NCBI GenBank assembly: GCA_013265495.1
Contig: MU058213.1
Span: 6,345,149 to 6,399,871 of the forward strand
Length of the DNA: 54,723 nt
Direction of reading: 5' to 3'
Origin: Vicugna vicugna
Taxonomy: Eukaryota
Positions 18,089 through 19,423 of the stretch are shown here, piece by piece. The position numbers were made by a program, and so were the translations under genes. The notes beneath the pieces are model-generated. The model saw only the letters and a program-made list of their open reading frames with translations, made no database searches and was not told where the DNA came from. Each line of letters opens with the position of its first letter. Position 1 is the first letter of the stretch.

Positions 18089-18108
18089 ATGGAAAATATG
18101 CATCTAAG
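18089..18108 (+). CDS. FAM81A: FAM81A exon 2 coding part (MENMHL+AG); apparent donor is GC-type AAG|GCGAGT
   Basis: ATGGAAAATATGCATCTAAG encodes the FAM81A N-terminus MENMHLR; phase 2 joins exon 3 at 19150 in frame. Confidence 0.8.
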
Positions 18109-18197
18109 GCGAGTTCGGACTATGCCCCGACACAGCCAGTCCCTGACCATAGCACCCTACTCGTCCGTGAGCCTAGTGGAGCAACTGGAGGATCGGA
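18109..18197 (+). repeat. Direct copy of the first 89 nt of exon 3 fused to the end of exon 2
   Basis: 88/89 identical to 19150-19238; the single mismatch is A18151 vs G19192. Confidence 0.97.
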
Positions 18198-18480
18198 ATA
18201 TACTTTTTCTTTCCACCAATTCCATAAGGGCTGCTAGTGGGTGTGATGGTCATTACAAATGAAGCCTTGCAAATGTTACATTATCAAGAGTGACTTTTTC
18301 CAGGGCAAGAGTGGTGCCGTTGTCCCCTCTCCAGCTTCCAGCGTGTGGAGTACTGTGGACCACTCAGTGACCGTGACAGATGGAGAGTCACGGGAGCCCT
18401 TCAGTTGTACTCCTGGTCAACAGTATAATGTACCTCTAGAGGCTCGGGGGCTGATATCTCTGCTAAAACCCTTTTTAAAT

Positions 18481-18839
18481 CAGAAGTTGCAAATTGGGTG
18501 TCCATAGGCCAAAATTGGCTCATAGAAGTTCATTGTGTTTTGGCCTGGATCATCTTAAAGACTTTTGAAATGAGTTGTTAACATTTAAAAAATCAGATGA
18601 TTTTACATGCAAGCCTGGATTTCCTGACTCTTCTTGAAATATCATCTGGTCTGTTAAAATGGACCTATATTCCCAGATGGTCCCTCAGGGGTGGAGCGGA
18701 ATTGTGGCTCCCTTTAATTGAGGAATGCCCTTTCCAGTTCTCCAAAGTCCCCACCACTCCCTATTGTACACCACATGGTGTGCTTCACTCATTTATGTCA
18801 CTGCCTGATCCTTGTAGGCATTTGAGTTTGTTATCACTG
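18481..18839 (+). mobile_element. MER102-like hAT-Charlie relic in intron 2
   Basis: cagaagttgcaaa...ggatttcctgactcttcttgaaa...ccagttctccaaagtccccaccactccctattgt resembles MER102 as recalled; heavily diverged. Confidence 0.6.
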
Positions 18840-19149
18840 CTTTAGGGGGAGGGAGGAGGAGGGCAGGTCAGGAGAATCTGTCAATCAGCCTGGTTGGTCC
18901 TCCAGCCTCTTGCTTTGGGAGGTCATGGAGCCTGCTACCAGCACGCTTAACTCTCTGGGTGCCATTGTTTAAAGATGCTGCCTGGCTCACGAAGCAGACT
19001 CTTTGGGGCAGAAACCCTGCCTCACATCCCATTTAGCTTATGTCGGGGTAGGTAGTTGGCCTTTCCTTCTCTGGGAAGTCTTGAATCTGGCTTTAAAAAT
19101 GACTTTCTCCCACTTGACAACCCTGGTGATGGGGGGTTCCCTTCCGCAG

Positions 19150-19423
19150 GCGAGTTCGGACTATGCCCCGACACAGCCAGTCCCTGACCATGGCACCCTA
19201 CTCGTCCGTGAGCCTAGTGGAGCAACTGGAGGATCGGATCCTCTGCCACGAGAAAACCACGGCCGCCCTTGTGGAGCACGCCTTCCGGATTAAAGACGAC
19301 ATTGTCAGCAGCTTGCAGAAAATGCAGAACAAAGGGGGAGGCGACCGCTTGGCCAGGCTTTTCTTGGAGGAGCACATCAGGAACATCACCGCCATCGTGA
19401 AGCAGCTTAATCGGGATATCGAG
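19150..19423 (+). CDS. FAM81A: FAM81A exon 3 (274 nt; [19 protein letters not shown]...KQLNRDIE)
   Basis: Acceptor ttcccttccgcag|G, donor GAG|gtaagg; ORF track 19163-19501 gives recognisable FAM81A sequence. Confidence 0.96.

Follow-up and report, generated by a model that had tools for sequence, protein, structure and literature searches.

Spliced sequence can be returned to the gene that gave rise to it by two related routes, reverse transcriptase- or cDNA-mediated intron loss and retrocopy-to-parent conversion, both of which are treated in the excerpted text of PMC5470649 (citing Derr 1991, Mourier and Jeffares 2003, and Casola 2012). A further kind of event is found in the ‘class 2’ templated insertions, in which, according to the available part of PMC5110952, short patches of cDNA or DNA are laid down at breaks and carry the features of end-joining. 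Processed retrocopies made by the L1 machinery are recognised, in contrast, by a poly-A tail and a target site duplication (TSD). Finally, the products of genome assembly have their own literature: excerpts of PMC11259980 describe how contig ends give rise to false duplications and chimeric contigs, while the portions at hand of PMC3663115 and PMC3554589 describe how reads from a retrocopy map to the exons of its parent as exon-exon junction reads.

All of these bear upon a short patch at the boundary of exon 2 and intron 2 of the FAM81A gene in an assembly of Vicugna vicugna. The stretch of DNA that was analysed, 54,723 nucleotides in length, is here termed the window. The translated third exon of the gene (P0001) draws 92 protein matches of 161-2000 amino acids at E <= 0.001, those with names being FAM81A of mammals, birds and reptiles, and the nine FAM81A exons are all present and open in the window. 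The features to which the argument refers are the following.

294..465, plus strand: FAM81A exon 1, a GC-rich 5' UTR exon, placed by BLAST of the retrocopy (below) against the window; donor GCGCCG/GTG.
18012..18108, plus strand: FAM81A exon 2, 97 nt, with its native acceptor (a T-run followed by ACAG) and the start of the protein, MENMHLR, with ATG at 18089 and 18098; placed by sequence, BLAST and tblastn.
18080..18085, plus strand: alternative GT donor within exon 2, GAAAG/GTGTAA at 18079/18080, matched to pig isoform X3 (P0024, ...VTEER/RVRT); intact, and outside the patch.
18109..18197, plus strand: the patch, 89 nt in which the start of exon 3 recurs in its retrocopy form, defined by sequence, repeat comparison and the retrocopy match.
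18151..18151, plus strand: diagnostic base A (codon ATA, Ile), where true exon 3 has G19192 (ATG, Met) and the retrocopy has A; from sequence comparisons.
18198..19149, plus strand: what is left of intron 2; apart from an old repeat relic (about 18692-18846) the sequence is unique, and it is conserved with other mammals at the 3' end.
19150..19423, plus strand: true FAM81A exon 3, with pyrimidine tract, CAG acceptor at 19147-19149 and GT donor at 19424; placed by BLAST and tblastn.
53274..54579, plus strand: last exon as far as the poly-A site, from the retrocopy and post-gap alignments.
54580-54723, plus strand: downstream flank, followed on the scaffold by a run of 2194 N.

The pig isoform that uses the second donor in exon 2 begins at an upstream ATG (18033 in the window), which points to alternative starts and donors at the 5' end of FAM81A. 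The 3' end of intron 2 is read through into exon 3 by contig open reading frames of other mammals (P0046, P0052, P0028). The relic within the intron is that of an old dispersed repeat, to which 10 other places in the genome match (70-89% identity).

An initial annotation of this DNA had proposed that a spliced junction of exons 2 and 3 was written back into the gene’s own locus, and its description of the site holds in nearly every particular. Exon 2 ends ...CATCTAAG at 18108 and is followed not by GT but by GCGAGT, with which exon 3 begins; its 3' end is as the annotation gave it, while its extent is corrected by sequence, BLAST and alignment to the 97 nt listed above. Direct-repeat comparison finds 91 nt at 18107-18197 repeated at 19148-19238 with a spacing of 1041 and a single mismatch (A18151 against G19192); when the shared AG is set aside, the patch agrees at 88/89 positions with 19150-19238, where exon 3 starts, as had been claimed. 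The two copies diverge at 18198, where ATATAC... stands in place of the TCCTCTG... of exon 3, and to the left they share only that AG: the polypyrimidine tract that lies upstream of 19148 has no counterpart upstream of 18107, again in agreement with the annotation, as is the presence of about 950 nt of intron and then the complete true exon 3 downstream of the patch. A near-perfect repeat of 91 nt is far from what chance would be expected to produce, and the fusion of 18108 to the base equivalent to 19150 is that of the normal mRNA, as judged from full-length orthologous proteins (P0025 of a lemur cluster and P0011 of muntjac) and by tblastn.

Inspection of the sequence at both edges of 18109-18197 found neither a poly-A tract nor a TSD, which bears out the annotation’s further statement that the patch is no ordinary retrocopy insertion; the two hallmarks by which an L1-mediated retrocopy is known are thus lacking at the patch itself. 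A pure insertion without loss of recipient sequence was ruled out, as the sequence after the patch begins with neither GT nor any part of exon 2. The right joint does not fall at the edge of a repeat, where contigs typically break, since the genome has no second copy of the sequence from 18198 to about 18690. Two further searches returned nothing: a protein search with the 57-residue open reading frame that spans the patch and its right joint gave no candidate among proteins of 31-100 amino acids (a range in which such short frames are rarely called), and exact patterns from the intron to the right of the joint and from the end of exon 2 had 0 matches in metagenomes and prokaryote genome contigs.

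The source of the patch became apparent when a query of 248 nt (exon 2, the patch and 63 nt of intron) was compared with the assembly to which the window belongs (2.03 Gb in 12,405 sequences). Three matches were returned: the query itself, exon 3, and a third at C4817:687036-687220, which is 100% identical over positions 1-185 of the query and stops exactly at the end of the patch. Over a slightly longer interval, 18011-18197 of the window is identical to the third locus (L002:1499-1685) at 187/187 positions, A18151 included. This third locus is a spliced copy of the gene.

L002:1356-3185 together with L004:1-683 (contig C4817): full-length processed retrocopy of FAM81A, with exons 1-9 spliced.

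The retrocopy ends in a tail of 13 A at the parent’s poly-A site and has on either side the same roughly 12 nt, AAGGATATGGAG, as its TSD; being full length, with poly-A and TSD, the C4817 copy is a bona fide L1-mediated processed retrocopy. It differs from the exons of its parent by about 27 mismatches in some 2.5 kb, in addition to a 24-nt and a 5-nt gap, and this divergence of about 1% marks it as young; exon 2 is 100% identical between the two. The reading frame of the retrocopy is broken after about 160 codons (the 5-nt gap lies in exon 5), and at residue 18 its Met codon has become one for Ile. The site into which it inserted seems to be L1-derived sequence. Its exon 1 is without 24 GC-rich nucleotides of the parent (354-377) and shows 5 mismatches in an alignment of 172 columns; the 24 nt may belong to an alternative form of the 5' UTR, may have been deleted from the retrocopy, or may reflect GC-rich sequence that was poorly assembled.

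Within the 89 nt of the patch, retrocopy and parent differ at exactly one position, where an in-frame Met codon has its third base (A in the retrocopy against G19192), and at that position the patch has A. Met is encoded there in 16/17 of the orthologue-derived proteins that were read (a count that leaves out P0040, which has an internal deletion), and G19192 is therefore ancestral. An independent mutation that struck the same one of 89 sites and gave the same base is improbable (we put the odds at roughly 1 in several hundred); given that, and the retrocopy’s A in the patch, the sequence comparison indicates that the patch is retrocopy sequence rather than a fresh copy of the gene’s own mRNA, a conclusion that argues both against the gene’s own mRNA or cDNA as template and against a local duplication by way of the AG microhomology. 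The initial annotation’s view that such a fusion calls for a spliced template is therefore kept, while its proposal that the template was the gene’s own RNA or cDNA gives way, the patch being equal to the retrocopy at A18151 as elsewhere. The annotation had itself named, as the case against its reading, an artefact fed by reads from a retrocopy, and the matching retrocopy, with the A of 18151, is what was found on C4817.

The first of the two disfavoured readings, in which a spliced mRNA or cDNA of FAM81A templated an in-place repair independently of the retrocopy, accounts well for a fusion that is exact to the base at the normal mRNA junction and for a patch with neither poly-A nor TSD, and patches templated by RNA or cDNA are documented in the excerpted text of PMC5110952. 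It is nonetheless very improbable: A18151 is the retrocopy’s state while the gene’s own exon 3 keeps the ancestral G, unless a parental allele with A, since lost, had fed both events. The second, a local DNA duplication of 19148-19238 to the exon 2 boundary by replication template switching at the AG, is in keeping with an AG that is common to both copies and with copies that stand on the same strand 1041 nt apart; yet it would set both breakpoints exactly on splice junctions by nothing other than chance, and would have to yield the retrocopy’s A from a local G, and it is scarcely credible. The reverse order of descent, in which the retrocopy derives from a transcript that already contained the patch, was considered and rejected, there being no usable splice sites with which to join 18197 to 19239.

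If the retrocopy supplied the patch, the supply may have occurred either in the germ line of the animal or in the construction of its assembly. In the germ-line reading, intron 2 would have been broken at its 5' end or just inside it and the break resected, and the end of exon 2 would have invaded the retrocopy, to which it offers 97 nt of perfect homology; 89 nt would then have been copied across the exon 2/3 junction before release and end-joining to the intron, with the 5' end of the intron deleted, so that a one-sided repair templated by the retrocopy was finished by end-joining. Such an event would account for the identity of the patch with the retrocopy, derived A included, for a left edge placed exactly where the homology of retrocopy and parent begins to differ (as one-sided invasion predicts), for the lack of TSD and poly-A at the patch, and for parental exons that are all intact. 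Its product might also be tolerated, because the new intron begins GCGAGT, a near-consensus GC donor (AAG/GCGAGT agrees with the donor consensus at all positions except +2), from which exon 2 would still be spliceable to true exon 3; about 1% of human introns have a GC 5' splice site according to the excerpted text of PMC3167603, and the alternative GT donor at 18080 is intact. Precedents exist for the component steps, since gene conversion with a retropseudogene on one side and a functional gene on the other is documented in the available text of PMC5470649, and end-joined patches in that of PMC5110952.

Set beside those precedents, the FAM81A patch nevertheless fits none of them entirely. 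It resembles the class 2 insertions (TSI/TSIP, in the parts of PMC5110952 that were available) as a short, 89-nt, spliced patch with neither TSD nor poly-A and with loss of recipient sequence; it differs from them in a left junction that is seamless and guided by homology instead of end-joined at a random site, in a donor that is the gene’s own retrocopy, and in being known here from the assembly alone. With cDNA-mediated intron loss and conversion (as excerpted from PMC5470649) it shares a spliced copy as donor to the parent and a transferred exon-exon junction. Intron loss, however, removes an intron precisely through two-sided homology, leaving a single fused exon, whereas FAM81A retains 950 nt, the greater part, of its intron and the whole of exon 3, and in this comparison the patch is at best a half-finished, one-sided version. 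Conversion between the two loci would likewise show homology on both sides; here the left side is exon 2 and the right side is unique intron with no match in the retrocopy. As for L1-mediated retrocopies, the donor on C4817 is one of these, while the patch is without their marks. If real, therefore, the patch would be a hybrid of retrocopy-to-parent conversion and class 2 templated insertion.

What weighs between the animal and the assembler, in an argument that is based on the assembly itself, is a second anomaly at the same gene. Directly after the end of the window at 54723 stands the run of 2194 N, the only such run in the window and 225 kb of flanks (about 280 kb in all), and directly after that run the 3' end of the gene appears again.

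L005:2195-3880 (C1645:6402066 onward), directly after the N run: second copy of the FAM81A 3' end, mostly with parent alleles and with the parent’s downstream flank.

The post-gap stretch aligns unbroken to positions 2366-3868 of the retrocopy, beginning with 2 nt of exon 7 and passing through the whole of exon 8 into exon 9, without intron 8; ahead of exon 8 the parent has CAG, its acceptor. It is not a further retrocopy in any simple sense: at the diagnostic sites of exon 9 it carries parent alleles at 7/10, with the other 3 equal to the retrocopy and different from the window’s copy, and it has no poly-A end but continues into the parent’s downstream flank. Window 53274-54723 is repeated in it, the two copies differing by 5 single bases, by a 40-nt indel and in a small patch that is rich in indels; about 1.6 kb is duplicated across the N run. 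At 54473-54541 the window departs at 3 clustered single bases from the retrocopy and from the post-gap copy alike, with indels of 3 nt and 40 nt nearby, and these differences may represent a second haplotype or noise at a contig end. A spliced junction joined to parent DNA at a contig edge, together with about 1.6 kb present on both sides of the only gap, is what marks a contig as chimeric and a duplication as false.

This second spliced-junction chimera, beside the scaffold’s only gap, makes the assembler a likelier author of the patch than the germ line, and the sole assembly break in about 280 kb falls exactly at FAM81A. The germ-line repair, which by itself demands a very rare event, would leave the other, unrelated spliced-junction anomaly at the same gene in need of an explanation of its own; two independent and very rare events in vivo at one gene are less economical than one confusion of parent with retrocopy. 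The germ-line reading is accordingly held to be unlikely, and the sequence comparisons lead us to regard the patch as probably a chimera of parent and retrocopy put together by an assembler or gap-filler, and thus as a structure that the genome of the animal most likely does not contain. A very slight share of the probability falls outside the four readings, which together come short of certainty.

The paralogue-induced chimeras and false duplications of PMC11259980 (in the text available) offer the nearest parallel to this preferred reading. They too involve a near-identical second copy elsewhere in the genome, as well as odd joins that begin exactly where the copies cease to match, and the duplication of about 1.6 kb on either side of the N run at FAM81A resembles the false duplications described there. 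At FAM81A the paralogue differs in being a processed retrocopy, so that the chimera looks like a spliced mRNA that was put back into its gene. Two of the observations by which such a chimera would be known are made here: the patch matches another locus of the assembly completely, down to a private variant of that locus (187/187, with A18151), and other signs of mis-assembly lie at the locus, in the spliced exon 7/8/9 sequence after the gap and the duplication.

The software step behind both chimeras, which we infer from the observed identity of patch and retrocopy and from the chimera observed beside the gap, may have run as follows. Reads from the retrocopy would fit the parent’s exon 2 perfectly and then run on into exon 3; they would be followed for approximately one read’s reach, which is to say the 89 nt, by an assembler, gap-closer or polisher that was extending to the right from exon 2; and the end so extended would be abutted to the next contig of the intron, whereby the assembly would lose the GT donor together with the rest of the genuine 5' end of intron 2. 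The post-gap contig would have arisen by the same confusion, through an extension to the left from exon 9 over the exon 8/9 and 7/8 junctions of the retrocopy.

Several observations stand against an artefact. A de Bruijn graph would have no natural fork at the patch’s right edge, since parent and retrocopy remain identical for a further 148 nt of exon 3, and the artefact therefore needs a step of read extension, gap closing or an over-filled gap. Gap closers may extend along reads in this manner. Elsewhere the region is highly contiguous, N being absent from over 110 kb to either side; as for the run of 2194 N, it may mark sequence that was withheld instead of a gap in the assembly. The assembled configuration would also be tolerable biologically, in that a GC donor and an alternative GT donor mean that selection does not exclude it.

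Sequencing runs were also consulted through words sampled from the stretch. Among 24 listed runs, 14, under 3 organism labels, hold 0.94-0.98 of the 116 words; the best share, 0.98, includes two runs flagged as possible sources, and none of the 14 holds all 116. The missing words speak weakly against a genuine event and are a weak hint of an artefact, as about 3 words would be expected across 18197/18198 and those that are missing cannot be located. In RNA runs the shares were 0.05-0.15. GAPDH was considered as a second pair of parent and retrocopies; its retrocopies carry stops, look old, and have no power for such a test.

If the patch is an artefact, as the above comparisons would have it, then a young retrocopy can cause a draft assembly to display an apparent mRNA written back into its gene, in this instance at two places in one gene, and the gene models of this FAM81A locus would be wrong, with a lost GT donor and a duplicated 3' end. 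Because a retrocopy can imitate a written-back mRNA in this way, claims of RNA-templated repair or of partial intron loss that are made from a single assembly need the support of reads. If the patch is real, it would instead be a rare natural intermediate, in a mammal, of retrocopy- or cDNA-mediated intron loss, in which one-sided homologous invasion was combined with end-joining: a frozen, half-completed intron loss, in which the copied start of exon 3 would supply a GC donor, so that normal splicing would be kept.
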